The notes below the pieces were generated by a model. That model searched no databases. It was not told the DNA's origin and was given only the letters and a program-made list of their open reading frames with translations. Position numbers and translations under genes: made by a program. A stretch of DNA of 63,980 bases, filler included, from Hausera hauseri (lineage: Eukaryota), in assembly GCA_046269625.1 (NCBI GenBank). It is 13 parts of 13 records of this genome, joined end to end, with 100 filler letters (N's around TTAATTAATTAA, not from the genome) between each part and the next. Parts side by side here need not be neighbours in the genome. Positions count along the whole stretch, not along the records: positions 28,202 to 33,165 come from JBJURY010376479.1; 12 more parts are not named here. One strand, written 5' to 3'. Position 1 is the first letter of the stretch; every line of letters starts with the position of its first letter. This document shows, piece by piece, positions 2,460 to 57,601 of the stretch.

Positions 2460-3842
2460 TCACTCATACATCTTATTTATAATCTTTGAGTCAGGGTCCA
2501 TTGCATCCGACAACTTCTTTACGAAATTGTATTCCTGGAAACTAAAATGTGGGTCATTTCTTATTTTTGTCAACGTGGTATGGAAATTCTGATCCGATCC
2601 GGCCATCCATTTTTGTGGTTTATGCAAGACTTTTATTACGTCGGTTAGCATTTCTCGATGTCCTGGACAAATGTCTAAGATTTCAATGTCTTGTACAGAA
2701 ATTTCGTCGATCGGTTTTCCTGTTAAGTATTGGACCCATTCTAGTCGGACAATCCTTAACTTTGAATTTACATCGTAAATCATATTCCGTTTTCCCGTAA
2801 AGTTCGTCTCTTCGATCAGTTTGTAGATTTCCTCTTCCATCATCAACGCTTCTCGTTCCTTTTCCATAAATTTCAGTCGTCGTAATGCTTCGAATTGAGT
2901 GCGAATGTCTATTTCTATCCGCACTGTGCCTAAATCATGTGCACTTTCCTCTAGATGCTTCTTTACCATTGGTTCGCTTTGAGGAAATTCCTTCTTTCGA
3001 TCTTCTACTAATTTGGTTAATCGCGTTATTAGTTCAGACCACTCCGGCAGTTGATTTGCGATTATCGGTTTTGCCATTATAGCCTTATCTAGAATCTTAT
3101 ATGCATCTTCTAACTCATTGTCTGGTCCTCTTAGGAAATTCATAATCCAGCCGGCATAACTGAATTCATTTTTATATTCGTCCAAATCTATAGTACAGGC
3201 TTTCACTATGTATTTGGTTTCTTCGTTATTTGGAGACATAATTCGGTTTTTCAAACTATAAATCTGTACTCGCTTTTCATTCTCTATCTTAATCCGATTT
3301 TCTAGGTTTGTATATTTTTTAGGTGTAGCAAATGCAATTTTTATCATCTCCATCAAGGAAGGAATATCTATTGGGCCTATACCCGATATTTCTAAATCGA
3401 TATTGCTTCGATGGTTAACCGGTTTTTCCCTAAGCCGATTAATCACTGCATTCCGGATTTCGTCCATCATACGTTCTATATTACGGACTACTCTCTTCAG
3501 TTTTGGTTTGGCTTCTAAGGTAGATAATAACGTTTGAGCTTTCGTAACTTTTACATCGACACTATCATCGTTTTTACTCCATCCTTCCGAAAATTCTACT
3601 CCGCTTTCAGTCCATGATTCTAATTCCTGCTTCCATTTTAACAACGTTTCGGTTGATACTTATTCGGGTTGTTTTAAGTTGATTGCTTCTTCAAGCTTAC
3701 CTTTACTGTGTAATTTTAGGATTTTGTATAATCTCTCCGCATATTGTTGTTCTTTTCCGGATATATCTACTTGTTCGCTGATCTGCTTGAGTCTTTCTAA
3801 ATTTTGCTGCAGTATTTCTCGATTGTGGTATCTAATTCTCAT
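2460..3842 (-). pseudogene. Long charged, probably helical region of unknown function in the retroelement polyprotein
   Basis: 394-aa open frame plus an upstream 60-aa piece, E/K/I-rich, no recognisable motif. Confidence 0.5.
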
Positions 3843-6879: not shown

Positions 6880-8210
6880 CCTATTGTTTTACTCGAAAAA
6901 GTCACCATAAACATCAATGAGCTACTCTAACCTGAATCGGAATCTATTGCAAGCCTTAATCAGTGTGTCCCCATCGAGGTCTGCCAAATCTTTCAGTGAC
7001 TTGCAGTCAATTAAGGACTTACCAGCAAAATAGGATGGTGTTAGCGATAGTGATTATGAGGAAACACAACTGGTTTGGTCAAAATACAGTTGCAACTGTC
7101 TGTTAGATTATATGTTGGTGTATATGAAACTTGACGTATACTTGTTAAGTGATGTCCTTGAACGGTTTAGAAAGGAGGTTAAGTTGCAAGATGGTTTAGA
7201 AGCCGCTAATTTGTCTCAATTCCAGGCTTAAGTTTGGCAACGGCACTGAAAACCAGTCCTTGTAAGATTGAACTTATCCAGGATCCTGAGATGTATCACT
7301 TCTTTCAGTCGGGTATTCACGGTGGCATTACTTTTGTAATTAAGCATAGGATTGTTACAGATGAAAGCAACAGTCTTTTGTATATAGATGTAAATAATTT
7401 GTACGGCTGGACTTTATCTCAACCTCTGCCATTTGCGAATCTGACTTGGATTTACGATGAGGACGTCTTGACCAATCTGATCCAACAATTACCTTTTATT
7501 GACTGTGTTAGGGAAAAACGAGGTTTAGTTTTTGAAGTGGACTTAAGCATTCCAACAGGCAAACATGATAAGTTGGACCAATTGCTCTTGCTCCAATCAA
7601 CCAATATCCTCCTGGTTCTAAAGTTAAGACATTATTGCTGATACATGAGCGTAAGTCCAACTATGTTGTTCACTATCGGCTTTTACAGTTGTACATCGAG
7701 TTAAGCGCTGTAGTTGAAAAGGTACATCGGGCTGTTGAGTTTGACCAAGGTTATTTCTTTAAAGATTACGTTGACTTAAATACTGCAAAGAGGGCTTCAG
7801 AAAATAATCCATTTGAGAAGGATTTCTTCAAGTTGAAGAACAATAGCTTGTATGGGAAAACAGTTAAAAATCTGTTGAAAAAGTCAAGTTTGAGGCTGTG
7901 TAAAAATGCTAAAAAGTTACTTACATATGCTAGTAAGGCGCAGTTTAAAGCCACCATTATTATAGCCGATGACCTGGTTGCTGTTCTTTTCGATAAAGAT
8001 ATGGTCACCTTAGATAGACCCTCATACATTGGTCAGGCCATACTTCATTTTTCTAAGTTGAGAATGTATGAGCTGAATTACATTGAGTTGGAATCATATA
8101 GACAACAGTTCAATTATGACCTTAATGTTGTTGCCAATGACACAGACAGTTTCTTTCTTGAATGTCACGGTGTTGATTTGCGAACACAGCTCTTTCCGGC
8201 AATGATAGCA
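6880..8210 (+). pseudogene. polB: Protein-primed family B DNA polymerase (Polinton/Maverick/adintovirus type), C-terminal part
   Basis: YMKLDVYLLSDV (ExoIII), GIHGGITF, LLYIDVNNLYGW (motif A), FFKLKNNSLYGKT (motif B), NDTDSFFL (motif C). Frameshifted. Confidence 0.9.
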
Positions 8211-8651
8211 GTAGGGGAAAAAAGAGTGTTCTGGGCCAAAGGGGGGAGGGGGGGGTCCACCCACGCACCAATTGACCAATCACAAGCGTCTCGCATGCTG
8301 ATTGGTTAATTCGACAACGGCGAGTNNNNNNNNNNNNNNNNNNNNNNNNNNNNNNNNNNNNNNNNNNNNTTAATTAATTAANNNNNNNNNNNNNNNNNNN
8401 NNNNNNNNNNNNNNNNNNNNNNNNNTTAAATTAGGGGATGTTTCTACAAGACCACAATTCTTTGTATGTAAAATTCTGAATTTTTCAGTTGTGTCAGAGT
8501 GAGAAATTGTGTCAATTATTTTGATTTTGGTAATGTGGCTTGTTGTGACGGCTTTGTAAAAAAATTTTTTTTTGTTATAATAAACAATAAATTTTGGCAA
8601 ACTCTTGAATTTTGATGTTTCTTACGCCGTTTTTTTTGCTATAAATTTCGG

Positions 8652-10133: not shown

Positions 10134-12408
10134 CTAACCGTACGGCAAGGGTTTTGAAAGCGCCCAGCCATACAAGTTATTAACGTATATGTACAACAGT
10201 AATGTGGTATCATCGCTGGTTACGTGATGCTTGTTGACAAATATCATTCCGTTACGAATACCAACATTAAACATTTGGTACATTTCCCGGTCTTTCAGTA
10301 GCTCGATATCCCAATCCAGTGACATCAGAGCTGATTTCCAACTCATTCCGGGAATTAAGTAAAAGTTGAGTGGCTCCAGTCTATCTTCCGGCAACGCTTT
10401 CGCTCGAAACGCCTGGAACACATCGGCTAATAAGTACACGTCCAGTTTAAGATACTGGAGCATGTAATTCAACATGTTTCTACAGCCCAGTTCTGTTAAA
10501 GATTTCTGTGCTCCCTGACATTCATCTTCTGTGATGTCTGTTCATTGCGGCGGTAATTCCTCTGCTGTCCGGATTTGCTCTTATGACGTTGCAAAGTCAT
10601 ATGGAAATATGCCTTTGCTGCGTGCAATATGTGTGGGGAAGTGCGTTGAAGTTATCGGCCCATCCGGCAAGGCATTTACCAGCTTTGCCAATGATTCATT
10701 GAGAAATTGCAATTAATCAAGGAAGTGTACCTGGAACCGGTTTATGCGTGAGGACAGGGACAGGTACTTCTCCATTGTTGTTGGGATTATGGACAGTTCC
10801 CAGTATGGAAATCCGTTGATGGCCCATTTCAGCATATAGTGACTATGATAACCTCGCAAATTATAGCCGCGAATGCCTTGTCAAATTGCATGTGTTGCAT
10901 GCTTCCCCCAAGTATCGACCGGTGAAATGATCATGGTCCGGAACGAGCAGTTCCTGTGCATCAAAAGTCAATGTTTTGTGACAGAAGTAACATTCATCGG
11001 TGGCAGCGAAAAGCAGTGGTTTATATTCGTCTGTCCATATCAAGGGCTTAGTGCTATTGTTACTGTACCATAGTGCGATTTCCGTTTCCACAATCGTTTT
11101 CAACTGTTGCAGGAAATCGTATATACAGTTCCAGCCATGAAAAGCGTAATATTGCAGTTGTCCGACGGCTTTTATTGGAACAACAAACATACCGACGGCG
11201 ATTAGAATGTGTTTTTAGTCGTACACTTTGTTCCGCGGTACGATTGCCTCGATATTGACATATACCACTTATGCTGGACTGTCTGTTTTTGACCAATCAC
11301 TTAATCTCAACTCCTTTTTGACTGGCATGACGTACATTGTTGTCCCTGATGAAGTTTTTCTCCACAGCGCCACATATTTTTCCCATGTGGCTTTTGACCT
11401 GAAATTATGTAAACATGTAGGGCACCATTTACAATTTATGCGCTTCTTGATCAATTGGTGGTGATCCATGTTCAGCAGTCTGTCCAAGTTGGTTAGTACC
11501 ACGTAGTGAAATTTATCTGCTTGCTCTAACAGCAACAAATTTACCGAGCGTTCATTCGGTTTTCGCCTGCGATAAATTATATCCACGTGTGAGTTTTAGT
11601 ATATCTCTTTGTTTGCTGATATTTCTACAATTGCGTTGTAACGGAACACGTTGATTGCCAGTGTGGAATTACGCCGTTCAAAAGCCGGAATGGTTTTGAG
11701 TTTCATCGGCATCCAACATTCGTCGTAGTCCAATTCTGAGAAATACTTATTGTACTGCTTTGGACAATTTGCATGATGTCTGGACACTTGATAATATTTC
11801 AGTATGGCCATGATGCTGTAAATAAAGCAATATTCGTCGTTAGTATTTTGTAAATTCACTACCGCCAGAGACTGCTTCAAGGATGCAGGTGTCGGCATGA
11901 ATTAACGTCCAGACAGGTAAATCATGTCAACCGTCTTGGTCAGAATAAAGCCGAGAGTAAAAATCTTTACAATTCGCCAACCAATGACCTTTTCGGTGTA
12001 GTTGGTAATTTTTCGTCAAGCTTTTCGCATACATCGGCAATAAAATCCTCGCAGTATGGTACGGCTCGATGTGACAGGTACCATTATTTCCTGTCACCCT
12101 GCAGATTTTTAAATTCTGCAAGTGCATAATATTGCACTTTGCAATAGTGTTGTTGTTGGAATTTGGCCACCTCTGATTCCAACCGGTTACGTACATTAGC
12201 GGGTACATCCTTCAATTGCGTTGCTATTTTCGCCGACGTGTCCACATTCATGTCCGCATACGATCTGTTCCGGTGGTATTTGACAGTAATGGACGGTTCA
12301 TGTTCCTACTGCTGCTGCTGCTGCTGTTTCTGACTTCTGTTGTTTTGAGAGTATTCATCCAAAGCTTGCTGATACTTGACGTTTCCTGTTACTTCTTGCT
12401 GAGTCCAT
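10134..12408 (-). pseudogene. polB: Protein-primed PolB (Polinton type) with endonuclease VII-like insertion, N-terminal to motif A
   Basis: AVVNLQNTNDEYCFIYSIMA, VNLLLL..HYVVLTNLDRL, CPTCLHNF, CYFC...PDHDHFTGRYLGEACNTCNL, YLKLDVYLLADVFQAFR, LLYIYVNNLYGWALSKPLPYG. Many stops and frameshifts. Confidence 0.9.
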
Positions 12409-15450: not shown

Positions 15451-16559
15451 GTCCGATCCACCCCGTAGGCGAAAGTGGAGAGTGAGGTGGATGATTGGGG
15501 AGGAAAAGGAAGAAAGCTGGTCATGGACGTTAAGTATAGAACATGATACGAGAGATAAAAGTCGGAGGAGTGGAGTGGAAGGATAGATGTGTGCAGGCGA
15601 TGTAAAGTATCTCTGTGTTGCACTGAAGGTATAGAAGTGTATATTATTGAAAAAGACAAACAGGGATAAGGGATGTGGTACAGAGGGGCCGAGCACGCTT
15701 GGTCCCTCAGTCCGACAATTCATTGGTAGCACAAATAAAAAAAATAATTGTAGTCCAATTAAAATTACTTTGAATTTGACTTTGTGCGTTTTCTTGGTTT
15801 CTTTCTTTGGCAAGAATTTCTCCGCCTTTTCCATGTATGAGGCATCGCCACAACTTTGAGATAGAATGCTGTTCAGAGCTTTATTTTTGACAATTTTGTC
15901 ACAGAGAGCTTTAGAACGAATATCAGTATTTCTAAGAGCAGTCGTAGTGTTGATATTAACTGCAGGCCTGTGATCCTTCAATATTTGTATGAGTGGATGT
16001 TTCTCTGCATTGTTTAACTACAAAGTGAAAATATAACAACTGAATTGAACAAATTAAAATATCTTGGATCAGTGTTGTTATTGAGTTTGATGGCTGGGCA
16101 ATTGTAAATAAACTGAATAAAAAGCTGATCACTCAGAGCTCTGGTGTAATTAAGATTCAGAAAATTGCTTGAAATTAAACTTTCGACAGACGCAAAAGGT
16201 TCCTTTATAAAACGACAAATAGCAATATGAAGACATCGGAATTCCCTAAAGAGAGTAACATGACCATAGTACATGGTCATCATCAGAATTTTCCGAAAAT
16301 CCATCGATAACAGTCAACGTTTGATGCTCGGATGTTGTGTCGTGTTTGATGATAAAATATTCGTTGCCCAACGATATGTTGGTACCGCATGGTGTTTCAA
16401 TCGGATTGTGCCACCAATGAGGATTTATAAAAGGATTCAGAAAAAGGATATTCTTTATCCAAAGTCATTCATGAATTTCCGGCAGCGCACGTGACAATTT
16501 GAATACTCCGAATCAAATAATCAACGATAAAAATACTGGCCTGATATTCCTTTTTAGCA

Positions 16560-16975
16560 TTTTTGCGAAACAATGGTTTCAGTGACGGATGTGATTTTGC
16601 TGCCAAGGCTCCTGGGGCTTTATCAACGAACATCGAATTGAATACATCTTCTAATTCACTATTCATCACAAGACCTTTTATGGCGTTCTGTAAGTTGATA
16701 AGCGTCATTCTAACAAAAGAAATAAAACGAGTAAATCTAATTAAATCGTGTCGCAGAACCTTCATTGGGTCCACTCCAGGAGAAAGAACAAATGTCAGAG
16801 GCGAACAGCGATTGGAATCATTAAAAGAACTCTTAAGATCAAATATAGGATAATCAATATATGTTTGGCCAGGATTTTCAACAACAAAGGTTTGAACAGC
16901 TGGTATAATTGTATCTGGCCTAATACACCTAAGAATAGCCAATCAATCGAAACCTTTAAGAGATACCAAATGGCC
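16560..16975 (-). pseudogene. Axonemal dynein heavy chain fragment (DNAH3/7/12-like), internally deleted
   Basis: ILRCIRPD..PAVQTFV...FDLKSSFNDSNRCSPLTFVLSPGVDPM is joined to VLRHDLIRF..LINLQNAIKGLVMNSELEDVFNSM..KSHPSLKPL. In-frame stop upstream, TTTTCAG acceptor near 16976. Confidence 0.85.
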
Positions 16976-24483: not shown

Positions 24484-25408
24484 AAGATTTGTACTTTTAT
24501 TTATAGGTGAAAAACGCTATAAAATATAATTACAGTACATATACCATGCAACAACAAAAAAAACTGAAATTACAGAGATATAAGAGTAAAGGAAAGAAAA
24601 TTAGATCACATAGTTCAATTAATCAGATTGTTATCACGTCAATGTCCTCCCTATCAGTCTTTTTGTTTTCCTTCGTGATTTCTTCTGGTTTGTTCGTCGT
24701 GTTGTTTTCTCCTGTCATTTCTTTGGGTATTAGGTTGTTTCGTATTTTAGCCAAAATGTCAGATGGTTTCCTCTCCTGATCAAGTCTAATCTTCTTCCGA
24801 AGCTTCACTGTTTCTACTGTATTTCCAAAGTGATAGTCATATTCATCATCCTTAAACAGTCGGTAAATTGAGTATTCTTGTTCGTCGTCATTCATTTCCT
24901 TTATCGGAATCCAACTGTTTTTTTTTCTTGCCTAACTACTAGTAATCCTGATAAAGTATGAGCGCTACTCTTTGTAACAACATTGGTAATCGCTTGTGCA
25001 GGGATAACTACTTGACATTTAAGTTCCTTAATGTTCGAAGCTCTTTCCGGGTTCATCTCAATTTTGAGATCTAAAATATCTGTAAAATTTCTGTAAGGAA
25101 TAAGTAATTTTCTTTCCCCAGTTGTTTTAGTATACTGTATTGCTATCAATCTATTACCAATTGACTCCCAGTCCGTTATCTGCTTATCGAATTCCTAATT
25201 GTAACGAAGCACTTTTCTCTTCCATAATCTCATCCAAGACTATAGGAATTATTAAGCCATTTCCCATAACTGCTAACAGTAATCCATTAATTCGAACTTT
25301 ATCTTTATTGGAATTTATAAGAGTACGGAGTAAGTCTTTCATCAATTCGTTACCCTTTATAGGTTCTGTTTGGACAGCTACGTTGGTAAAGTTTATTGTA
25401 TTCCAGTT

Positions 25409-26299
25409 TCATTTGGTGCTCTTAGTAGGAATTTCTTCATCATCGAACATTGGTTCTAGGATTTTACAATCCATCGTTTCGAATTCCTCTTTGTCAATCA
25501 TTTCGTCAGTTTTTATCGATTTAGTTTTATTTCCTTTCGTAAAAGTGGCATCGGTTTCGTATTTCCATTGCAATCCAGTTAAATAGGATTTATCACGATT
25601 TAGGAGATCTCCATGATCTAGAATATTATTGTGTGGGTCAGCTGGAACCCACTCATAGGTCTCTTTCAACTTTCTGTGAGCCCCTATATTGGGCTGAAGT
25701 CGTCCTTTTGTGGTGCTAGGAAATTTGTTTATTTGTAAAAATTCTATTAGTTGACTTATTGTCCTAATTCGGTTGTCCATAGTATTCGCAACATTCTTCA
25801 ATGGATCAAAAACTGCACATGCTGTATTCATGGGAATACACAACGCTTTAAAGGTTTTGTATGCTTCTAACGTCACTATTTTATAACCCAAGATATATTT
25901 TTTGATTTCTATTTGCACAGTTCGAGAGTCCATTCCATTCTTAATTTTGTCCCATGAGATGTCATGTCGTATATTATTTAAGTTGTGGATTACTCTTCTA
26001 TGTGTTGTCACTTGGTTAAAAACAATATCATCATTCTTTTCAGCTATTATTATCTCTACTGGGAGCTGGACCTGCAGACCATTGGATTTATGTCCATATG
26101 CAAATGATACAGCTATGTATCTAATGCTGTTTGATTTACTAGTATATAAAATATTCGGTTCTCCCATAAGGTCTTCTTCAGTCGGTTCTTCCTTATATTT
26201 CAAAGGCAATAAGATTGGAATTTTTCTTTCTCTAAAAATTTCTATCATTCCTATATTAAGTATCTCTTGATATGAGTCTGGTTCTTGATGGGTCGACAA
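25409..26299 (-). CDS. REXO4/ISG20-like DEDDh exonuclease fold with degenerate active site, probable retroelement cargo
   Basis: YIAVSFAYG..VEIII..IVFNQVTT..HDISWDKIKNG..TVQIEIKKYILGYKIV..FKALCI parallels YVALDCEMVG..VSIV..VYDxYV..SGIRPENLKQG..VVQKEVxxxLxGRILVGH..DLKVL. The acidic residues are absent. Confidence 0.55.
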   Translation of the reverse strand: MSTHQEPDSYQEILNIGMIEIFRERKIPILLPLKYKEEPTEEDLMGEPNILYTSKSNSIRYIAVSFAYGHKSNGLQVQLPVEIIIAEKNDDIVFNQVTTHRRVIHNLNNIRHDISWDKIKNGMDSRTVQIEIKKYILGYKIVTLEAYKTFKALCIPMNTACAVFDPLKNVANTMDNRIRTISQLIEFLQINKFPSTTKGRLQPNIGAHRKLKETYEWVPADPHNNILDHGDLLNRDKSYLTGLQWKYETDATFTKGNKTKSIKTDEMIDKEEFETMDCKILEPMFDDEEIPTKSTK

Positions 26300-26948
26300 G
26301 ATAGTTTATCTGACAAGATTCCTGTTCTGAAATAATTTCTAATGAGTTTTTACGCTCTCTTCCTTTCCCGAATGTTAGCATAATTTTTCCTATTGCCAGG
26401 TATACAGTTATTCCTTTGTTGTTTGATGTCCATTGTGGTAATCTAAAGGTTGTATCTGAATTGAATATCTTAAAAGGTAAAATTTGACGATTACGCTGTT
26501 CCTCGTATTTGAATGCGTTGGGAATCTTTGTAACTTCATTTATTGGACTTACCGAATTATTGATTTGTTCCATTATGTTATCATAAAATGAATAAGTCAT
26601 TTGTTTTCTGTACTGAGCTTCTGAATTCCGTTATCATCTTTATCTCTCCATATTGGATATTTGAAGTAATTCTGCTTTCCAATTTCTGTAGTTTTGCCAA
26701 TTAGTCGTTTGCTTCCGGATTCCGTAGCCGAATTGCATATTCTCTTAGACATGTTTCTTTGTGCCACTATATAACAATTTTCTTCGTTTTTATATTCCTT
26801 CAGATCTACTCTGATTTTGTAGCCAATCGTATTTTCATAACTTTTGTTCTTATTGGCCGATGTTTTCAAAAGGGTATGTAATATTATGATTGGTCAAATC
26901 ATCATACTTGCTACGAGTGTGTCTTTCATCAGGTTTTCCTTAAGGTAA

Positions 26949-28101
26949 TTACTCAACCCTATTAACTAGACTAAAAATCACAATGGGTGCAAAGCAAAAC
27001 ATAGTGCTTGTCATTTCATTTACATTCTCTTCATTACTTGCTATCATGTTTGAAGCTGTAGGCTCTCTATTTCGATTTTGCTCCTCAATTCTATTTAATT
27101 GTGAGCAAATCTGATTTCCTCTAATTATAGAGTAATATGATTCATCATTTTTCTTTTTACATCTGGGTTTTTTACCCAATGCAATACTTATCATAAGGAT
27201 TATTCCAATACCTGCTATTAATATGAATATCCACCAGTATTGTAATATATATTTTTCGGTAGTTATAATTGAAACACTAGTTAATTTCTATTTTTCGTCG
27301 TCGTCATTATATCTTATGTGACGGTATTGATCTATTGCTGGTTGTGTTTTTATGGCCACAATCTTTGAATTATCTAAGGTCTCTATTCTAACAAGGTAAT
27401 TAGTATCGGGTGTTAGTTTTTCACAGAAGTTTCGTTTATTTGTCTCGTACTTGATAATAACTTTTTCATGAGAACCTGTGCAAGTTAGTGTAATATTTCG
27501 TTCATTTATTGTGTTTTGCAATATTATTTCAATGCGATCTGTATAAGGCTTTAATTTGAATTTGATAGGAAATTCTTTCATCCATTGCGTGGTTTAGGTT
27601 GGACTGTTGATTCTCGATCCCGATCTCGATTTGGCTCACGATTTTGATCACGGTCCGCTCGATCTTTCTCTCGATCTCCCCTACCTTTAATGGTGGGTAT
27701 AGTCCATAATGTTGATGTTGTCGGTTTTTTCACAGAATGTGGTGAAGTTATATGTTGCTTAGCAAAAATCGGAATAGGTATGTGTGGTTTGACCGCGAAG
27801 AGAATAGGAATACGGTGAGAATGCACTCTAATAGATTGTTTATTTTCCAGCGTTTGGTATGCATCTAAACGGATTCTGTACCAGACGTATGGATAGAGTG
27901 TGCAACATGAACGGGTATCATTCCGCTTAAGATAACAATAATGTAGTTGTTTTATAGATGTAGAGTTTGGATCAAGCCATATGCTGATTTCGAATTCAAT
28001 TGTAATAACTGCGTAGTGCGAAAATTCATACAAGGTGGTTGTCTTGTAATGTTGATACTAGAAAATTCAATATCATGTTTTAAGAAGTGAGCGATAAAAG
28101 G
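26949..28101 (-). pseudogene. Type I membrane protein: two FN3-like domains, TM helix, basic cytoplasmic tail
   Basis: CTLYPYVWYRIRLDA and CEKLTPDTNYLVRIET (LxPxxxY tyrosine corner). After one stop it reads WWIFILIAGIGIILMISIALG-KKPRCKKK in frame. Confidence 0.6.
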
Positions 28102-28201: not shown

Positions 28202-31200
28202 TTATCGAGAAAAGAAATACCCGGTGCAAAAACCAAAATCGATAAGAAAGACGTAAAGTTAACGCAATATTTCGATAATAAGATTGACTTTCTGATCAAT
28301 TACGTAAGGAAAGAAATTAGAGGTTTATATCGTGAAATAATAATGAACGAGTGTAAGTTGAATTACGAAATAATGCGTAATAAAATGGCGCTGGTAATAA
28401 CAAATCCGGACATGGTAGCACCTGTAATGCCTTTCGGTGATGGAATTATGGGCAGAATAATGGGCGAGGTATTAATAACAATAGAATGCAAAAGGGTAGA
28501 AGTATCGATTAGACCCACGGAAGAATGTACAATGGAGCTACCTGTTGTTTACCATTCTGAAGCACGATACATTATGCCAGTAACTAGGATACTTCTCGAT
28601 GCTAATGTAAAGCCCACTCCGTTATACAATTGTACTTTTAACATGTCACCGATGTTTAAGATTGATAATGATAAATGGATAAGAATGCCCAAGAGAGAAC
28701 CAATATCTAAACCAGAGACATTGAGTTTAATTAATTTACAAAGAAATCAAAAATTTGAACCGCTGACCGGAATATCACAGGGAGGAATTTATACACAACA
28801 AAATTTAGAAGATTATCGACGTATGTTGTTGTTTCCTCAGCAAAGACAGAGGGTCATAACGGAATTGACAAGGAAAGTAATGTGGGATGGTGAAGGTTCA
28901 CCACAGTGGGAAAACCTTATGGGCAAGGATTATCTAAAGAAGGTGACAAAAAACGTAATGGAAAAGATGTGGGGAAAGTTCCTGTATTTTGGTCAAGCAG
29001 CCTCCGGTTTTCTAGCCATATATTTTATTATTAGTGCCATTCGAACAGTATTTACGGCACTCGGTAAAGCATATGGAATACATGCAGCAGTAGGATGCTC
29101 CTGGAAGATTTTAATAGCGGTAATACCAGCAGTAGCAAGTTGCTTCTTGGCAAACCATGATGCCCGATGGAAGAAGAAAATATTAAAAAGGAGAGACATG
29201 AAAGAATCCCTATATAGTATACCGGATGATAATGATGTTGAATATAGCCAAAGGAAAGTAAAGAAACGAGTACCTAATATTAAACAATTAATGCTCAAGA
29301 CACGAAAACCTAAGTACAAACAGAAATTAATAACAGATCTACCTCGTTTAGATCCCGCGGATGAGTATCATGGGCAAATTTATAATGAACAACCGTTAAT
29401 AAATCCTTCGGCTCCCCGATACGTGGTACATGCAGGACTGTACCCTACGCAACAAGTACAACAGATGAGACAAAGTCTTGATGACAATATAGTCCCTTAT
29501 AAGCGTGAATCCACATACATCGTTGACGATAAAAACGAACAACAACCACCAATAAGACCCGAAATTGAAATAGAAGTGAACGGGTACCCCATGATGGCTT
29601 TGTTAGATACTGGGTCAACCACGACGATAATGAGCAAGAGCCAATTACCAAAGGAATTAAGAAAAAGGTTAAGAAAACCAACCACCACAATGGTAAACGT
29701 AGGAGCCTTCGGTACGGAAGAGGAAATCAAAATGGTCCTAGATGCTAAAATTAAAATTGGTGAGCAAACCTTGAAGCATACCATAAGAATAGCCGATAAT
29801 TTGACTAATGAAATTTTAATTGGATGTGACGTATTAAATCAATTGAAAGACGCATATATCGATATGAGAACATGTCAACTGAAGACATTCAGTGAAGACT
29901 GTAATGAAGGAATGGTTTCACTAACAAAAGACATTACAATCCCACCGCGGTCGGAGATAATAGTCCCGGGAAGAGTAGAAAGTCGAACGTTACCAGAGAT
30001 TATTTATTTTGAAGCATTCCCTCAAGTCATGGAGAAATATGAAGTACTAATTGCCCCTCATGTAGATAAAGTAAGAGATGGGAAAATCCATTTACGCATC
30101 TGCAACACAACGAATAAAGAGAAACGATTACGAAAAGATACTAGATTGGGAAAAGTAATAACAACGGAAGAAATAATAAAAGAAGGAATTTACTCAGTAA
30201 TATCAGACGTGGATAGAATAGAAAAAATGATGACAAAAAAATTGAAAAAGAAATCAGACGAAGACAAAAGAAATAAAACCACGAATATTGATTGGAACGA
30301 AAGGTTAAAAAAATGCGAAATTCTAAGTAAAGAAGAAAAGGAAATGTTAGTTAAACTATTAGAAAAGAATGCCAGTCGATTCGCACAAACCGACTATGAT
30401 CTCGGTACCATGAAAGTAATACAGCATGTTATTAAATTGAAGGATGGACAAGATAAACCAATTAAGAAAAGACCATACCGACTGGCCTATGATAAGAAGC
30501 AGGAAGCTCGCAAAATAATAAAAGAGATGAGAGAAAATAAAATAATTCGACCAAGCTGTTCACCATGGACAGCGCCAGTAGTAATGGTTAAAAAGAAAGA
30601 CGGAAGTATGAGATTTTGCATAGACTATAGAGCCTTAAACGAAATAACAGAAACGGACACATACCCATTACCGAGAATCGACGAGATACTGGATAAATTA
30701 CACGGATCAACTATATTCACAACTATCGATTTACAAAAGGGTTATTGGCAAGTGGAGGTTAAAGAAGAAGACAAACCGAAAACAGCCTTCTCAATTGGAG
30801 AAGGGTTATGGGAGTTCAATCGGATGCCCTTTGGACTGAAGAATGGACCTCCAACGTTCCAAAGAGGAACAGAGCTCCTGCTGTTGGACGCTCCACACGC
30901 CATGGTATATATAGACGACTTAATAATAGCATCATCAAATTTTCAGCAACACTTAAAGTATCTGCAAGATCTTTTTGATAGATGCGAGATAATGGGCCTA
31001 AAAATAAACCCTAAGAAGTATTCATTTGCACAAGCGGAGGTAGCTTTCCTCGGACATAAAGTAGATAGACATGGTGTAAGACCTCAGGATAAGCTCTTAG
31101 GGAAAATAAGAGATTTCCTTAAGCCAAGTACAGTTAGAGAACTACGTCAGTTTCTAGAGTTAGCCAACTATTATCGAAGATTCATAAAGGATTTTAGTAA

Positions 31201-31459
31201 AATTGCTAAACCTCTGTACGAGTTATTACGCGAAGATTTAAACAATGTCATTTGGACCAACGAATGTCAGAAAATTTTCGAATATTTAAAAGATAGATTA
31301 TTAACGGCTCCTGTATTAATCTACCCAGATATGACCAAACCATTTATTTTGGCAACGGATGCAAGTGATTATAGAATAGGAACAGTATTATTACAAAAGG
31401 GCGAAGATGGAAAAGAACATCCTGTCGCCTATGCTTCACGAAAACTTAATAAACATTAA
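28202..31459 (+). CDS. Polyprotein: chuvirus-like glycoprotein C-half, TM segments, aspartic protease, RT, RNase H (5'-truncated, premature stop in RNase H)
   Basis: One frame open from the contig start. GEVLITIECKRVEV..RPTEECTMELPV..PVTRIL, GGIYTQQNLEDYRRMLLFP and WGKFLYFGQAASG match chuvirus G motifs. Then ALLDTGS, RFCIDYRALN, YPLPRID, MPFGLKNGP, YIDD, LATDAS. Confidence 0.92.
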   Translation, partial: LSRKEIPGAKTKIDKKDVKLTQYFDNKIDFLINYVRKEIRGLYREIIMNECKLNYEIMRNKMALVITNPDMVAPVMPFGDGIMGRIMGEVLITIECKRVEVSIRPTEECTMELPVVYHSEARYIMPVTRILLDANVKPTPLYNCTFNMSPMFKIDNDKWIRMPKREPISKPETLSLINLQRNQKFEPLTGISQGGIYTQQNLEDYRRMLLFPQQRQRVITELTRKVMWDGEGSPQWENLMGKDYLKKVTKNVMEKMWGKFLYFGQAASGFLAIYFIISAIRTVFTALGKAYGIHAAVGCSWKILIAVIPAVASCFLANHDARWKKKILKRRDMKESLYSIPDDNDVEYSQRKVKKRVPNIKQLMLKTRKPKYKQKLITDLPRLDPADEYHGQIYNEQPLINPSAPRYVVHAGLYPTQQVQQMRQSLDDNIVPYKRESTYIVDDKNEQQPPIRPEIEIEVNGYPMMALLDTGSTTTIMSKSQLPKELRKRLRKPTTTMVNVGAFGTEEEIKMVLDAKIKIGEQTLKHTIRIADNLTNEILIGCDVLNQLKDAYIDMRTCQLKTFSEDCNEGMVSLTKDITIPPRSEIIVPGRVESRTLPEIIYFEAFPQVMEKYEVLIAPHVDKVRDGKIHLRICNTTNKEKRLRKDTRLGKVITTEEIIKEGIYSVISDVDRIEKMMTKKLKKKSDEDKRNKTTNIDWNERLKKCEILSKEEKEMLVKLLEKNASRFAQTDYDLGTMKVIQHVIKLKDGQDKPIKKRPYRLAYDKKQEARKIIKEMRENKIIRPSCSPWTAPVVMVKKKDGSMRFCIDYRALNEITETDTYPLPRIDEILDKLHGSTIFTTIDLQKGYWQVEVKEEDKPKTAFSIGEGLWEFNRMPFGLKNGPPTFQRGTELLLLDAPHAMVYIDDLIIASSNFQQHLKYLQDLFDRCEIMGLKINPKKYSFAQAEVAFLGHKVDRHGVRPQDKLLGKIRDFLKPSTVRELRQFLELANYYRRFIKDFSKIAKPLYELLREDLNNVIWTNECQKIFEYLKDRLLTAPVLIYPDMTKPFILATDASDYRIGTVLLQKGEDGKEHPVAYASRKLNKH

Positions 31460-33165
31460 AAGAAATAAGCCGTAATAGAGAAAGAGTTATTAGCAATGAT
31501 ATTCGCCTTAGAAGTATTTTCACCGTATATCAGCGAAAATAAACCGCTTGTGATTTATACAGATTATAGACTAAAACAACATGAAAATCCAAATAGCAGA
31601 TTACTACGATGGGCTCTAAAGTTACAACCATATACATTTAATTTTCAGTATAAGCCTGGCACACGAAACGCTAATGCTGATTACTTATCGAGACTACCTG
31701 ATAAAACAGAAACAAAAGCAGTAGTCGCAGCCGTATGGAGTATGGATGGATCAGTTGAGAAGATTAAAGCAAATCAAAATGAAGATGAAAAAATAAGAGC
31801 CATTAGGAATTACATAAAAGATAAAACCGTGCCCGTTGACAAAGAGTTAACCCGTCATCTGTCTCACTTTAGCGAAGCGTACGAGGAGAAGGAAGGATTT
31901 CTGTACTTTATTAGTCAAAATGGACCTGCATTAGTAATTTCTAAGAAAAATAGAGCTGTTCTACTAACACAATATCATGATGGATTACTTGGAGGACATC
32001 AATTAGCCAATGACATTAAACAAATTAAAACGAAAATACTTTTGGCCCATGATAACAAAAGATGTACAGGAATGGTGTGAGAGCTGTAAGCTGTGTGCCA
32101 CACGGAAAAACACCGGATCAAAATTCAAAGCACCATTAAAAGTATGGGATAACCCTCCAGCACCATTCGAGTTTACCGCTATGGATATAACGGGGCCATT
32201 ACCGCTGACACGGAACGGAAATAAATATATTCTAGTCTTTATCGACTACTTCACCAGATGGGTGGTTGCCCTACCAATGTCTGATATGAAGGCAGATACA
32301 ATAGCTGAAAGATTTGTGGAGAATATAGTATTCAATTATGGAGCTCCGAGAATCCTTTTGACCGATCAAGCATCAAATTTGACTGGAACTGTAATGCAGT
32401 CCATATATGATATTTTGAAAATATTAAAGTTACGGTCAACTCCCGGACATCCGGAGAATAATGGAATGGTTGAGAGGTATATTGGAGATTTAAAAGGAAA
32501 ATTACAAACGGTAGTAAATACTAGGCAAGATGATTGGGACGAATACATCAATGCATGTGTTTTCGTCAATCGAACATCAGTTCATGAAGCTACTAAAGAA
32601 ACACCTTTTTATTTAATGTATTTGCGAGATGCAAGACTACCAATCGATCTAGATTTTAACGTAAAACCCACTTCACATTTAATGGCAATAGAAGATTATA
32701 AACAGTTAATGCAAGAACGACTTCAGTTAGCCTATAAAATGATTGGTGATAATCAAAAAGATTATAAATTAAAGTATAAGAAATATTATGATCAAAAGAC
32801 TAAACAGCCTAAAATCAAGGTAGGCGACCGAGTAATGTTATATTCTCCAGCAATAAAAAAGGTAAAACGTCGAAGTTGGATAGACCATATAAAGGACCAT
32901 ATGAAGTGGAAAAAGTAGACCTACCGAATATTTGTCTAAAGAAAAATAATACTTCTGTAAAAGTCCACGTTAACAGATGTAAGCCCGCTGCCAAGGAGAG
33001 CGAACTAAGAAAAGGTGAAAAAGAGTCGGTATGTAGCGTTGGTGAGAGCATTGGTGAGAAGGTAACCGCAAGAGGTTCAATAAATAGACTACAATTAAAA
33101 AGAATATTAGTACTAATTGTCGTTCTATTTCCCTTAGTAATAGGACAGATGACGGATCAAGAAAT
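31460..33165 (+). pseudogene. RNase H C-terminus, integrase with GPY/F module, and a downstream signal-peptide-like segment
   Basis: EKELLAMIFAL, RWALKLQ, NANADYLSR, YHDGLLGGH/YFWP..CKLC, MDITGPLP, TDQASN, NGMVER, PYKGPYEV, VHVNRCK, then RILVLIVVLFPLVIG. Two stops and two frameshifts. Confidence 0.92.
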
Positions 33166-34269: not shown

Positions 34270-36430
34270 CAGTCTTAATGGCTTCTTAAAGTCGTAGACT
34301 CTTTTCTTAAAGCCAATACCTTACTCATACTTTTACCCTCAAGCATTAAATCACAACTTTCAAACTTATCCGAAATCTTCCAAAACACTGACCCATACAA
34401 CGCATTCTTAAACTCGGTCTTAAAAATCACAGAGCCGCCTTTGGATAATATCATCCACAAGTATTTTAACGATAACCTTTCGAGTTTCTTCAGACTGCAT
34501 TAACTCAGTTGAGCATTCTGAGTGTCAGCCAAACGAATAACGCCGATTTGCTACGAAGATAGTTTCTGCCGTCTCTATCGCGGGACATTCGTACACTCTG
34601 AACGATAGTTGAGGATACCGAGACATTACAAAAGCTGGCACAATTGGCTGATAAAAGCCATGAAATATTACATGGACAATCACTGCCACTAGTTGCCGCT
34701 ACATTACAAATATCAACGACACAACAGATTAACGAAATAACAAACCTGAACAACCAAATAAATTCTTCACGTACTGAAAATGCCAATATATACCAGGCAA
34801 TTTCAGTAAAAGCCCTACCATGCCGAGGCGGAGTCCTTTCGATGCGGACCATAGCCGCACTTCGTCTCAAAATTCGAGACCTGCGAGGTTTCCTGCGCGA
34901 CCGATACTAAGTCCTACATTGTCTGCATATACCGTAATAAATTTAACAATAAAACACTCAAGTGCATAACAGGTTGCACTTTCACCAATCGATTCAATTC
35001 TTCACAGCCTGATTCTTCCAAAAACTTAAATCCTACTCTTAAAAAACTAGTAAAACCGCCAGATGTTTCGGCGCATGCTGGCACAGGCAAATATCTCCAC
35101 TCTGCCAGCCGTACTTATGCCCGTACTTATCAGTTAATTTTTTAATCGACTCTGGAGCAGCAGTGTCTCTCCTGAATCTGCCTACCAAAACCACAATTTT
35201 TCTCCGTCAGTCAAAAAATTATATACAGCTAATGGCCAAGCATGGCATGAGTGCGGCGCGTCCAAAATCTCGTTACGTCACAGCCTTTTCCTGACGTTTT
35301 CACATGGACCTTCACCATTGCCAACACGCAGTCACCAATTGTTGTCTCTGATTTTTTACCTTTCTACAACCTCCTGGTAGACTGTAGGCAGCGTCGGTTA
35401 GTCAGAAATAATTCGACAAACACAACGTGCATAGATAAACTCCCACCGGTTGCGCAGACTACTTCGTTTGTCGGGCCCATACTAAAAAAGTCATTATCAA
35501 ATTTAAATGCAAATACGAATTTTAACACTACCGATTTTGATAATTTTATATTTCAATCGAATGGTAACAGAATAGAGAACGTTGACATAAACGATTTAGA
35601 CAGTTCAATATCCACCATGTCCAGTTCTACAACTGATCAATCATCTGATTTGCTAACAACATAATTTGCCCCGTTAAGTCAAGAAATCCAACAATATTTA
35701 ACTAAGTCCTGTTTCCGCGCGATCTAAAAGGACCCAACTTTTAGACAAACTAGCTCGACATTCCATCACCTCATCACCGAGAATCCTAGGCTCATTAGGC
35801 AAAAACTCAGGCCAATCTCACCATGCCGTAGACAAGCGGTCCAATATGAATTCACGTCTCTCGAACAAGCAGGTATAATCCACCGTTCGAAGACATTTTG
35901 GGCTTCACAACTCTACGTAGTACTCAAAAACGATGGCAAATTCCGTCCATGTGACGATTATCGCCCACTTAATAACGTCACAATCGATGATGTTTCTCTT
36001 CTACCGTTGATAAAGGACACCTTACATTTGTTGCATAAAACTACAATCTACTCTACTGTATACCTAAAAAAGGGTCTACCACCAAGTACCGGTAGCACCT
36101 GAAGACATTGAAAACGGCGATAATAATATAATTTGGCCTCTTCGAATATGCCTTCATGCCATTTGGCTTAGTGAATGCAGCCAAATCTTTTCAACGACAT
36201 ATAGATTCTATACTTCCAGGCTTGCCATTCGTTTACCCATATATCGACGATATATTAGTAGCATCAACCTCACCTAAATAACATGCCGAACATCTCAAAC
36301 TTATTTTTCAACGCTTACATAACAAAAATTTACACGTAAACTTCACGAAATGCATATTCTTTCAAAAATAGCCATTTGTTATGCATATAATCACTCCTGA
36401 CAGTCACACTCCATAGCCTGATAGAATTCA
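34270..36430 (+). mobile_element. Ty3/Gypsy CsRn1-like gag-PR-RT remnant
   Basis: LQKLAQLADK gag motif, CIYRNKFNNKTLKCITGC knuckle, FLIDSGAAVS, SDFLPFYNLLVDC, DGKFRPCDDYRPLN, MPFGL, YIDDILVAS. Related to 13740-15450 and 59874-63980. Confidence 0.9.
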
Positions 36431-52106: not shown

Positions 52107-54560
52107 GTCCGTATTAAATTGAATGTACGGTTGAAGCCACTTTGACTGACTGAATTGCAAAGCCCTGTGGATTTTTTTAATCTGCACGCCATGTCGCACT
52201 GCCTGCTGTAAAGAAACATAATGGCTGATATATCGTTTTCGATTGTTTAAGTGCAACAATAATTTTTAAGATTTTCCATTTGGTGATGGCAGTTTTGATT
52301 CCTGCAGGAACGGTAGCTGATCATGTTCGTCAATCAGTAATATGGGTGAACTACGTCAACCTCCAAAATGTACCCTGTTTCTGCATCTAGTGGAATAGCC
52401 ATGATATCACTTTGACTGAAATAATCTGCCCATTGGAAATTTCCATAGGGTAAGCTGCATCACATAGCTTAGACATAGAGATTATTTGCGCCAAGGTACA
52501 TGATGAATGACGATGGTATGTATGAATTACTTGACATATTCCTCCTTGTATTGCCCCCTCCAACATCAATATCATATCGTAGTCCTTCAACGCTTGCAGC
52601 TGAACTCCTGTGTATTTCAACATTGCTGACTGTCATTCCGGGAGCCGCAAAAAATCAGCAGGATCAACTTTCTTGTTTGCCATTGTCACATTTTGGAAAC
52701 TCTCGAAAACATCAGCTAGAAGAATCACATAAGTTAGTAGATATACATCACTGTAATCACCCAGTGTCTTACATTTGAATGAGCTCCAAACGTTTTGAGC
52801 ATGTGCATAATCTTCATCGCTAATGCTCGAATGCGAAAATTTGTTGTAAAACATTTACAGAGGTGGTAATCTGGTTTCATCCAATTTGTTTATGACGTGA
52901 TGTAGTCATCGGGAAAACACCATTTCGCTTAACTCAGTAAAATGTGTCCATCTAGAAGTATCTTCTGGTCTCCTTTAGTTCACTATCTTGCAGATTTTTC
53001 ACCAGTTTATCCAAGCTGTTGCTCATAAGTTTTAGACTGTTTTTAAAACGCAGCTGCATCGTTCCAAAATGCAGTGAAAGTAATATACTTTTCTTTACTG
53101 TGTGGAATAACATCAATTTTTCCATTCACATTTCGCAGTTCTCTGATAATAAAATGTGAATCGTATCCACTTAAGTTGTGAAATATTCCGGGGATAAATT
53201 TAACAGTTGGACCACGGTATTTTCCCCTGATGTGACAGTGATCTCGAACTTTGTGATTTTCAGCGGTAAATTGTTTTGCACACAAGTAGCAAACTGAAAC
53301 ATTTTTCCATTGGGTTTCCTTAATTGCTGTAATATTTATTTTTTTCGGTTTCATATCTTCGATACTGTGAGCAAGTTCTTCCAACCGTGTCATAAAATTG
53401 ATGCTGCATTTCGGGTCCTGTATAGGTATGGCTCGTTTGCAAATCCTTTTGAAAACATACAAAAAGACATTACCTCATGCAATTGATAGGCAGTATTACT
53501 TGAATGATCCTTGTTTGGGTTACGTGTGTGGATTGGAGTCAAGATAGACTCAAAATCACAGTAAATAACGAACGGTACTCGTAGAATTTTTTTATATTCC
53601 TTAAAATAGACGATATCCTCCTGGGGAAAATCTAACTTGACAGATTTTTTCTCATTGAAACACAATTTATGTTCCTTTAGTTTGCCTTCAGCTAATTTTC
53701 CATGTTGATCATCAAAATGTGAAAAACACGTCTTGCATATTAATATACCATTCATACTCTTCGTGATCTGTGATCTAATTAACCGACCAATATTTTTTAT
53801 CTACACATAGTGGCTTTTTTCACCATTACTTAATAACAGCAAATCCCGATGGTCTGATTTTTCTTCATTGCAAACCTTGAGTGGATATATTTTATTCTTT
53901 TTATCAATCGCAAAAATATTGATAGATATATCATTGAAATTTTCAAATTTCCTGATATCAAGAAACGATGAAGGGTATGTTATACAAGAAAAATTATATG
54001 GATGATCAAGGTTTGTGTATTTGTCAACCCGATGTGGATTTGTGTCTAAAAATTTCGATAGAATTGAATACTTGAAGCATAAATCATCATCAATGTTTTG
54101 TACATTAATGCATGCCTTTTATCTTCAATCCATTGAAGCAGCTTAATGTATGATGATCCACGCATTGGGGAATACTTGTGAATCCTCATGTTGAGTCCTT
54201 TGATGTTCGAAAGAGTCCATCCGCTTTTCTTAGCATGGCTTTTTTCGGCTTCAGTTACCAATTTCGTAAACTCTCCATCAAAGAAATCGGTAATTTCTGA
54301 GGCATGCAGGATAGGCTTGCTTTTTGTTTTGAAAGAACTTTTAGATAGTTCACCATCCTTTTCACAGTCAGCCTCGATAACTAGGTTAACTTTCAGGGCA
54401 TTGATTTCTGATAGATTTTCATTTAAGGCTGTGGTTGCATCCGCTTTTGAAAATTCCAAAAATTTAGGGAGACTCTTTTGACCGGTTGCAGGAATAAAAT
54501 GGGTAACAATTTTACGAAAAAGTTACATCGAATATATTTTATTTTTGATAAAGAAATTGT
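52107..54560 (-). pseudogene. polB: Protein-primed PolB (Polinton type, different subfamily) with EndoVII-like insertion
   Basis: SGWTL..KYSPMRGSSYIKL, PFVIYCDFESIL (ExoI), CYLC..KVRDHCHIRGKYRG, FHNLSGYDSHFII (ExoII), LGDYSDVYL..LLADVFESF, KIHRALQFSQSKWLQPYIQFNT. Confidence 0.92.
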
Positions 54561-54894: not shown

Positions 54895-54912
54895 TGGTGC
54901 CGTGACCCGGGA
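54895..54912 (+). promoter_or_regulatory. Primer-binding site complementary to the tRNA-His 3' end
   Basis: TGGTGCCGTGACCCGGGA vs tRNA-His PBS TGGTGCCGTGACTCGGAT, located right after the LTR-end CA. Confidence 0.85.
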
Positions 54913-55018
54913 CCTTTAGATAAAACCTTTAGAGAAGCAGAAGTAGTTAGTATTCAAAATTACAACTACGAAGGGAACACCTTACCAAGTAGAACCAGAC
55001 GATAATCCGCTCTTTGGA

Positions 55019-56041
55019 TTGGAATTCATAAATCATTTGAGTGAAGAAGACGAAGATAGAATGACCCGGAATGATCATGTAGTAGAGCAGGTGATCCAGT
55101 CCAATGCTAACTTCACCCTGCCAATGAAAAAATTCTCAGAGAAGGAGGACGTACAGGACTTCATCATGGAATACGAGGTATACTCGAGAAGTTTTGGATG
55201 GACGGACCAACAACTAATGGAGAGGTTACGCCTTTACCTGAAGGGAACAGCCCTAACAATCTACTTCCAGATGCCTGAAGATGATAAGAAGGATTGGAAA
55301 ACCGTCGAAGAAAAGTTGCCACAGAAGTTTTTAGTTGATCCCTCTGGAAAAGGAAGGATAGAAGAGTTTATGCGAAGAAGGCAACGGAAAGATGAGACGG
55401 TCCAGGATTTTGTGTGTGCACTGAAGAAATTGGCAGCTAGGGCATATCCTGATGCAACGATAAGAGGTAATGCGTTACTGGCTTAATTCCAATAGAGACT
55501 CGAAGGGAAGTTAAGAACAATAATCCTGCAGGCTGATCCACCCACATTTCAAGAAGCCATAAGGAAGGAACGCAAAGCAGAACGGGACGAAGAAATATAC
55601 AGGTGGAATAAACCCAAAAGATATAAAAATTACGACGATAACCGAAAGAATTATAGTACACAAAAGTATGAACGGTATAACAGAAACAGAAGCCCTTCGC
55701 AAACTTCAGCTGCGGAAGCTGAGTCCGACGCTGAAAAGAAGGTACGATTCAAACTAAAGAACGATGGTGAAAATGCATTTTATAAGAAGAAATCCCCCAC
55801 AAAGGACGGAAGAAAGTTGCCTAATATAGATGCTGAAGGAAGACTAAAATGTTTTAATTGTAACAAGTATGATCACATAGCAAAAATATGTAGATCACGA
55901 AAAAGGAAATCCTCAAAACCTTATAAGCAAAAGAAAAAGGAATATACCTCAGAAACGTCGGACGAGTCATACGATCAAGAGCATAAAACGGAAGAAAGCA
56001 ATAGTGAGCATGAAAGAAAGAATAAAAGAAGAAAAGTGTAA
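55019..56041 (+). pseudogene. gag: Gag (capsid plus CCHC zinc knuckle)
   Basis: FSEKEDVQDFI..GW..LRLYLKGTA..RRQRKDETVQDF..PPTFQEAI and CFNCNKYDHIAKIC, all in one frame with internal stops. Confidence 0.92.
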
Positions 56042-56657: not shown

Positions 56658-56882
56658 GTAAGAATAATATTAAAAGAAAGAAACCAAGATATGAGGGTTA
56701 TAAGAATGAATGAAACAGACGATGTATTGACATTACGAGAAAAGATTGGAGAACTAGAACCGTTTTATAAGGAAAAGACATATGGATTAATCTTTTATGG
56801 CAGAACACTATACAGCTACGACAATTTGTTACGAGTGGGATGTAGGAGTGAAAACTGTAACCCAATTACGATAACAGAGATA
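56658..56882 (+). pseudogene. Ubiquitin-like domain within the retroelement polyprotein
   Basis: VRIILKERNQDMRVIRMNETDDVLTLREKI..YGLIFYGRTLYSYDNLLRVG aligns nearly gap-free with ubiquitin MQIFVK..EPSDTIENVKAKI..RLIFAGKQLEDGRTLSDYN. Confidence 0.75.
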
Positions 56883-57601
56883 CACCCCAATGCAAGAGCA
56901 GAAGCAACGATAGATAACATCATAAGGGAACTGGAACCTCAAGAGGTTGACGAACAACCATTAGGCAATACACAGGATGTTACGGTGCCAACAGAAGCCT
57001 GAAGGAGAGGAAGACCAAGAGGAACAAAGATAAGTGACATTCGGAATAAACGGGATGGAAATGAAGAAATCGTGCGACGTCTATTATTGGCAGGAACAGG
57101 TACAACGCCAGAATCTATAGATATAGATCCTTTGTTAAGAAAGTTGTTAGCCAAATTACACACGTCATTTGCATCGTTTAATATGCAAGTGGCAGTCCCT
57201 GACGAATTGTTACAGACGTTACGTAACGGCATGTTGAAAATTAGTAGGCAGTTTTATAAAAATATTGGAGAGGAACGAATCAATAAATTACATGAGCAAG
57301 ACTCATTAGAAAAGATGTTTGCGACAGGAATTACGCAAGAAAAGTTTAAACAGCTATAGCCTATTTATTATATAAAGTGATTGTGATCAATCACCAGACC
57401 CAAAATTTAGAAGAAATTGATCGAAGTATTAAAGCAACGGTTAAGGCTTTGAAAGATACGATAGAAAGTTGAGTCCAGTGTAGAGGCGGGTGATTGGAAT
57501 GTCTTACAAAAAATGTAAGAGCAGAAGGATACGGAGGACTAACAGAAACGCCAACCGTCGCACAATCAAACCAACACACGCCAAAACAAGGCATAACGGG
57601 A

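Follow-up and report, generated by a model that had tools for sequence, protein, structure and literature searches.

Ty3/Gypsy elements in which the envelope gene lies between gag and pol have been described before. In the sections covered here, Chary and Hayashi (eLife 2026, PMC13524379) report the order GAG-ENV-POL, with an envelope protein of the herpesvirus glycoprotein B (gB) type, in Nematoda, Bryozoa and Platyhelminthes, give Schmidtea families of up to 215 copies, and credit the nematode elements to Sacco et al. 2022 (J Gen Virol 103:1739). Here we analyze such an element in a 63,980-nucleotide stretch of DNA from Hausera hauseri (assembly GCA_046269625.1), hereafter the window, which consists of 13 separate contigs joined by N44-TTAATTAATTAA-N44 spacers; adjacent contigs are not necessarily linked. 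In the first two thirds of contig 7 (28202–33165), a viral fusion glycoprotein (G) shares one reading frame with protease, reverse transcriptase (RT) and ribonuclease H (RNase H).

The original prediction, made from the sequence alone, held that no element with this layout had been described. That claim fails by the prediction's own test of a family already described in this order, given the published GAG-ENV-POL Ty3/Gypsy elements with gB-type envelopes (PMC13524379, sections covered) and the same order in the annotated protein CRE_29046. The gene order, being already known, is no discovery in itself. The nematode elements of Sacco and colleagues are said to have one continuous gag-env-pro-pol open reading frame (ORF). 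The interest lies in how a single chain that contains capsid, fusogen and enzymes crosses the membrane, is cleaved and keeps its products in proportion. We read the contig-7 element as one decayed member of a multicopy Ty3/Gypsy family of the GAG-ENV-POL kind. Its class III envelope protein is in frame with protease, RT and RNase H, and the product is likely one polyprotein that threads the membrane; we give this reading a probability of about 0.68.

The glycoprotein frame on contig 7

The features of the contig-7 copy are given below, with Pfam positions as residues of the frame.

28202–28969, + strand: class III fusion protein ectodomain, C-terminal half, with long helix, beta-rich domain and arm (PF24664, Monjiviricetes_fusion, residues 10–345, E 5.1e-64; AlphaFold2; Foldseek); GEV starts at 28463, ELPV at 28535, GGIY at 28781
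28970–29152, + strand: membrane anchor, with the WGKF..FG stretch (WGKF starts at 28970) and hydrophobic segments H1 (29006–29062, predicted true transmembrane) and H2 (29096–29152, predicted re-entrant or amphipathic)
29153–29554, + strand: basic tail (RWKKKILKRR), then a linker under low constraint; open and in frame (sequence)
29555–29848, + strand: retroviral-type aspartic protease (RVP, residues 452–549, E 3.4e-11); ALLDTGS starts at 29597, DTGS at 29606
30587–31063, + strand: RT core (RVT_1, residues 796–954, E 1.1e-33; Ty3 RT match); YIDD at 30908
31253–31633, + strand: RNase H (RT_RNaseH_2, residues 1018–1084, E 7.1e-24), broken by two stops (31457–31468), with PF17919/PF17917 matches on both sides of them; TDAS starts at 31355
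32007–33055, + strand: integrase, with H2C2 zinc finger, rve core and C-terminal part (PF17921, PF00665; tblastn with relative P0001)
33104–33145, + strand: segment resembling a signal peptide, in frame with the integrase C-terminus and following basic residues (Kyte–Doolittle hydropathy, KD, 2.85; position in relatives)

The frame is free of stops from 28202 to 31456 (+ strand, 1085 amino acids) and encodes G, protease, RT and RNase H in that order, as had been predicted; all the motifs and both hydrophobic segments named in the prediction were found at the positions listed. The contig begins at 28202, so the frame is open at its 5′ end, and only the C-terminal half of G is present, the N-terminal half lying off the contig. 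Two stops interrupt RNase H (31457–31459 and 31466–31468), the integrase (32007–32915) follows in a shifted frame, and its C-terminal part, after another frame shift, continues into the signal-like segment; the shifts lie near 32010 and 32855. The contig-7 copy is decayed after the RT and cannot make an intact Pol. At the first stop, most contigs of two sequencing runs differ from this copy (depth 11,252/11,516 in run X1 and 286/286 in run X2), so the break looks copy-specific.

The identity of G was assessed by structure as well as by profile. An AlphaFold2 model of G residues 1–345, built on a 124-sequence alignment, reached a predicted local distance difference test score (pLDDT) of 84.9 and a predicted template modeling score (pTM) of 0.49. 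The PDB matches listed for it by Foldseek are exclusively herpes gB (seven with E<=0.001, best 2.6e-4), and gB domain IV superposed on the model at a root-mean-square deviation of 4.2. In a viral library its top matches are chuvirus-type and related G proteins, with E values down to 3e-16 and 1.5e-15 for a chuvirus-type G. The template modeling scores are low (0.23–0.33) because half the protein was modeled. A single-sequence PDB search with G returned nothing useful; a profile search gave gB in 30 of 32 rows, at weak E values of 0.19–1.6. Together with the PF24664 match, these structure matches support the predicted assignment of G to the chuvirus/gB-type class III fusogens, the herpes simplex virus gB-type envelope class found in GAG-ENV-POL errantiviruses. 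The anchor layout (WG.F..FG, H1, short loop, H2, basic tail) is common to fused and free G proteins. In relatives, the start of G is a hydrophobic segment with a conserved [YF]DC after it; gag lies upstream in frame, so this segment is taken to be an internal signal.

The join between glycoprotein and protease

A chuvirus-like glycoprotein could lie beside a Gypsy pol through chance nesting, or the two could have been joined in a chimeric assembly. The fragmented assembly and the high repetition of the family (21,014 contigs in one run) lend some weight to this explanation. Eight sequencing runs from eight studies contain the stretch, two of them at least half its words; the best of these runs may represent the original sample. 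Over 28900–29800, four runs contributed 3,218, 457, 66 and 15 contigs, which cover 30, 30, 30 and 26 of 30 bins; a single indel row was seen, in one of these 3,756 contigs. The longest bridge, a 419-nucleotide contig of run X6, passes without a gap from the anchor into the linker. The predicted junction has continuous depth (30/30 bins in three of the four runs), but no single listed contig of the four runs spans from the G anchor to the protease motif. Among 40 of the 76 differences, those at third codon positions number 12/15 in G, 8/10 in the protease and 5/15 in the linker.

Evidence against a chance or artificial join also comes from a second copy, on contig 12, which has the same join. 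Its features, and those of a third relative, are:

54895–54906, + strand: tRNA-His primer-binding site (PBS), second copy (exact match, 0.06 expected by chance)
54947–56041, + strand: gag, second copy, with stops (PF00098; tblastn with P0001 gag, E 6e-17); CCHC at 55847–55894
57494–59319, + strand: whole G, second copy, with internal signal at about 57602, stops, a deletion and a shift (PF24664, E 2.2e-35 and 1.2e-27)
59320–59773, + strand: linker and protease start, second copy, in the G-anchor frame, with two stops, to the contig end (tblastx)
133–963, − strand: third relative (more distant, on another contig), signal and N-terminal half of G (PF24664, E 8.7e-18)

The second copy is 69–78% identical to the contig-7 copy in DNA and reads, in order, PBS, gag with CCHC, spacer, signal and whole G, linker and, where the contig ends, the first protease residues. 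By tblastx, a single frame covers its G anchor, linker and protease start; it is interrupted by two stops and never shifts. In gap-free blocks the two copies have reached saturation at synonymous sites (~0.76), while nonsynonymous divergence (dN) is 0.10 and 0.07 for G, 0.41 for the linker and 0.26 for the protease start. The PBS complements the tRNA-His end listed in supplement 1 of Chary and Hayashi (PMC13524379).

Relatives in protein databases present the arrangement intact. A search among longer proteins gave seven matches, two of which carry G: P0001, a chain of 4029 amino acids with gag, G, protease, RT, RNase H, integrase and more, and P0002 (C. remanei CRE_29046, annotated), a single chain running from gag through G to integrase. 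The P0001 cluster comprises 20 proteins; the other 14 that are listed are unbroken and 97.4–99.7% identical, which shows recent use of the design. A query of G plus protease against 1.84 billion representatives gave 910 matches. Seventeen of the 150 listed matches, picked for length or multiple stretches, were scanned with Pfam, and in 12 of them the protease follows G in one chain; the other five comprise three with G alone at the cut-off (P0029, P0031, P0034; P0031 had a weak protease match in a further scan), one with G and no pol domain, and one with integrase before G. Eight database proteins carry G, protease, RT, RNase H and integrase in one chain, and relatives extend as single chains from gag through G and Pol to a second membrane protein. 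The envelope gene lies between gag and pol when the second copy (gag, G, protease start), contig 7 (G to integrase) and relatives P0001, P0027 and P0030 are considered.

A G tree (FastTree, 40 rows) separates the 15 G-then-protease rows and four shorter relatives from 21 others at a branch with support 100. A first RT tree had long branches and was not resolved; a second grouped nine fused non-nematode members at just 88/68, with P0002 outside, which falls short of showing one origin for the fused members. A metagenome scan gave 30 pattern matches, none of them confirmed. Compared by sequence, the in-frame env-pol fusion is a conserved feature of a multicopy element and not a one-off join. Chance nesting and assembly chimera were rejected on the strength of the second copy, the eight intact chains, the G tree, where all 15 fused proteins fall on one side, and the continuous depth; we consider either highly improbable.

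Several other observations concern these copies and relatives. Two to seven protease-like DTG/DSG motifs occur per chain in P0001, P0023, P0024, P0027, P0028, P0030 and P0175, some after the integrase, compared with one in the window copy. P0175 also has C2H2 and ankyrin matches. P0026 (HBK71150.1), whose contig spans 9 kb, carries a Flavobacteriaceae annotation and is probably animal DNA in a bacterial bin. A Bcl-2-like segment (57311–57514, + strand) lies just upstream of the second-copy G signal; a profile from three relatives matches it alone among 858 frame pieces (E 0.007), and the Bcl-2 label comes from one weak Pfam match in P0029 (E 0.00096, below the cut-off). A ubiquitin-like stretch (Pfam E 0.035) lies between gag and env at 56694–56825 (+ strand) and 1356–1721 (− strand), and the P0001 spacer weakly matches the one on the first contig (E 6e-4). 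The region 1925–3659 (− strand), upstream of the third G copy, holds A-rich frames of 399 and 156 amino acids with no Pfam match.

Membrane topology and the proposed polyprotein

The hydropathy of the anchor was compared at a KD threshold of 1.6 between eight fused members and 111 others (five rows are without the region). H1 reaches the threshold in 8/8 fused members and 102/111 others, H2 in 1/8 and 12/111. The family pattern is therefore one crossing, which leaves Pol cytosolic. Seven lysine or arginine residues stand within 15 residues after H2, and P0175 has an extra pair of hydrophobic segments before its RT-side protease, so that its crossing count stays even; both favor a cytosolic Pol. 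Basic residues also precede the second signal, after the integrase.

Besides the missing spanning contig, four points weigh against our reading. The sole fused member with a strong H2 is the contig-7 copy itself (KD 1.92, H1 1.85), so hydropathy alone permits two crossings. The helix layout of the AlphaFold2 monomer (242–297, a short 301–307, and 309–337) was computed without a membrane. A single ORF yields Gag, Env and Pol at 1:1:1, which is odd for a capsid. No long terminal repeat (LTR) pair was found among the window pieces, whose contigs are too short.

If H1 and H2 both crossed, read-through Pol would be lumenal and useless, and the working Pol would have to come from another product. 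H2 is hydrophobic in the second copy too (KD 2.09), and the H1–H2 loop is short; against this, H2 is weak in 7/8 fused members, and the seven basic residues after it are a mark of the cytosolic side. Three crossings could also fit within the 60-residue anchor, again with a cytosolic Pol. We regard two crossings as improbable.

In the most likely reading, with H1 as the one crossing, Pol would remain attached to G until the protease released it. Gag would be cytosolic, after which the internal signal would direct G into the lumen of the endoplasmic reticulum, where signal peptidase would free the G N-terminus. At H1, G would recross a single time, H2 resting against the inner leaflet or dipping into it, which would place protease, RT, RNase H and integrase in the cytosol, tethered to the G tail; the second signal would begin another lumenal domain with its own transmembrane segment. 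Packing at the budding membrane would let the protease dimerize and cut Pol free, a release placed at budding because of retroviral practice. We propose that every particle with an envelope would thereby also receive Pol.

The 1:1:1 output suggests that splicing or early termination may add products. It could even be that the DNA frame is continuous and yet Pol and excess Gag come mainly from env-skipping spliced RNAs, with readthrough minor or yielding Env only, which would remove the stoichiometry problem. Foamy viruses offer a parallel, as their Pol is made from a spliced RNA. Pure splicing, however, needs no open linker, and the linker is open and in frame across proteins 30–40% identical in G; nor was a polypyrimidine-AG acceptor found in 28901–29600 by a simple pattern, which is a weak test. 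We consider this alternative unlikely, although less so than two crossings. Slippery heptamers are frequent in the A-rich DNA of the window and were not counted as evidence.

The proposed polyprotein would extend beyond Pol. On contig 7 the frame of the integrase C-terminus runs into RLQLKRILVLIVVLFPLVIG at 33104–33145, 20 nucleotides short of the contig end. A signal-like segment follows the integrase in six full-length relatives, and in five of these an ectodomain of 200–390 amino acids, a clear transmembrane segment and a short tail come after it (P0047 is less clear); P0002 has no such segment, and P0077 stops before this point. Although the ectodomains hardly resemble one another, four of the six share a C..L...T.Y motif, which is seen five times in all and never upstream in those four. 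A profile of these units matches one of 1113 window segments, 27593–27291 on contig 6, ahead of a transmembrane segment; the motif was chosen after this segment had been seen, so the test is partly circular.

26952–28057, − strand: probable post-integrase membrane protein of a related element, with beta-rich unit and transmembrane segment, on contig 6, separate from contig 7 (relatives' profile, E 3.3e-6, partly circular)

A whole-segment profile of the post-integrase proteins had no significant match in the window. No fn3 match appeared in Pfam scans of the relatives. Atlas fn3 clusters scored 0.90–0.92 for P0026 (low recognition) and 0.80–0.81 for the window beta-rich unit; the model of that unit has low confidence (pLDDT 51.7), and its fold search gave a best Z of 4.3 with no fibronectin type III (FN3) row. 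Five of the six relatives thus appear to carry a second type I membrane protein after the integrase, possibly FN3-like. Downstream of the contig-6 transmembrane protein, a broken frame of ~2.3 kb (24620–26900, − strand) had no Pfam match for the two pieces scanned and is possibly a further accessory gene.

A literature search outside Repbase found no in-frame signal-like segment after integrase in print, nothing beyond one unrelated paper on Gypsy env elements with a signal peptide or fibronectin type III, and, judged from listings, nothing relevant to a planarian envelope polyprotein with Bcl-2. By word search, the terms 'fused', 'polyprotein', 'in frame', 'fibronectin' and 'accessory' are absent from the main text of PMC13524379. 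The long chain would end in a second, apparently undescribed surface protein. In the sections of Chary and Hayashi covered here (PMC13524379), the entry route of gB-bearing elements, which are without gD/gH/gL, is described as unknown; a second membrane protein, conserved and in frame with the rest, is a concrete candidate partner for the gB-like fusogen. Taken together, a more tentative reading, which we hold at somewhat less than even odds, is a flavivirus-like two-glycoprotein polyprotein whose second glycoprotein is a captured partner of the fusogen, with Pol held at both ends and extra modules in some members. The order would be Gag, signal, class III fusogen, transmembrane segment, one to several proteases, RT, RNase H, integrase, signal, FN3-like protein and transmembrane segment. 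The second protein would be a receptor-binding or immune-decoy partner, in the role of gD/gH-gL for herpes gB, and some members would have Bcl-2-like and ubiquitin-like modules before env.

Other window features and comparison with known elements

Elsewhere in the window, fragments of a protein-primed DNA polymerase B, as in Polinton-like elements, lie at 7572–8306 (+ strand, Pfam E 4.3e-7) and, by eye, at 10137–11214 and 53046–54522 (both − strand), the latter immediately upstream of the second copy. Two further Gypsy pol copies, decayed and unrelated (35251–36419, + strand; 61303–63840, − strand), have no env on their contigs. A segment at 16472–16942 (− strand) resembles, by eye, what we take to be a dynein heavy chain fragment. 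No tRNA gene was found in the window.

The predicted env-pol fusion in a Ty3/Gypsy element is upheld by the Pfam domains, the structure matches of G and a Ty3-type RT. The order is protease, RT, RNase H, integrase, and the best solved match of the RT is Ty3 RT (4ol8, E 3.6e-73), ahead of caulimoviral-type and retroviral entries in a comparison without BEL/Pao RT. A tRNA PBS precedes gag in the second copy; contig 7 is without that end. BEL/Pao membership was rejected given the envelope before the protease, the Gypsy-type RNase H and H2C2 integrase Pfam families, and the absence of a BEL-type protease family among the Pfam matches. With its stops and shifts after RT, the contig-7 copy falls outside the intact-ORF inclusion rule of Chary and Hayashi. 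Within supplement 2 of PMC13524379, YQES (4/4) and TNYKGIY (2/2) of the second copy occur in Schmidtea rows only, which makes the Schmidtea group the closest published one by motif match, without an alignment. On sequence grounds, and within the sections of that paper covered, the contig-7 element is a decayed addition to the published GAG-ENV-POL kind, closest to the flatworm group.

Compared with known systems, yeast Ty3 shares the order from protease to integrase and gives the best solved RT match, but has no env. The chuvirus-G elements of mosquitoes (Dezordi et al. 2020, as far as covered) have a BEL/Pao pol, in contrast to the Gypsy pol of the window. Stand-alone chuvirus-type G proteins (PF24664) share the fusogen family and anchor layout with the window G, but are ~25% identical to it and fall on the opposite side of the G tree; chuvirus-type G elsewhere is a free ORF or follows the integrase (P0139), whereas the window G precedes the protease. 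The P0002 RT is 39% identical to the window RT, against 46–56% for other relatives, and lies outside their group in the tree; unlike the window element, P0002 has one strong transmembrane segment, no WG.F..FG anchor and no signal-like segment after the integrase. In the nematode endogenous retroviruses (Sacco et al. 2022, as cited in PMC13524379), env precedes pol, as in the window. For the GAG-ENV-POL group, the sections of PMC13524379 covered here state no single frame, topology or post-integrase membrane protein. Within it, the Platyhelminthes_C1a rows (Smed_errantivirus_1-6) list no PBS, whereas the second copy in the window has one for tRNA-His; their likeness to the window element, judged by short motifs alone, is accompanied by the same gene order, a gB-type envelope and high copy number.

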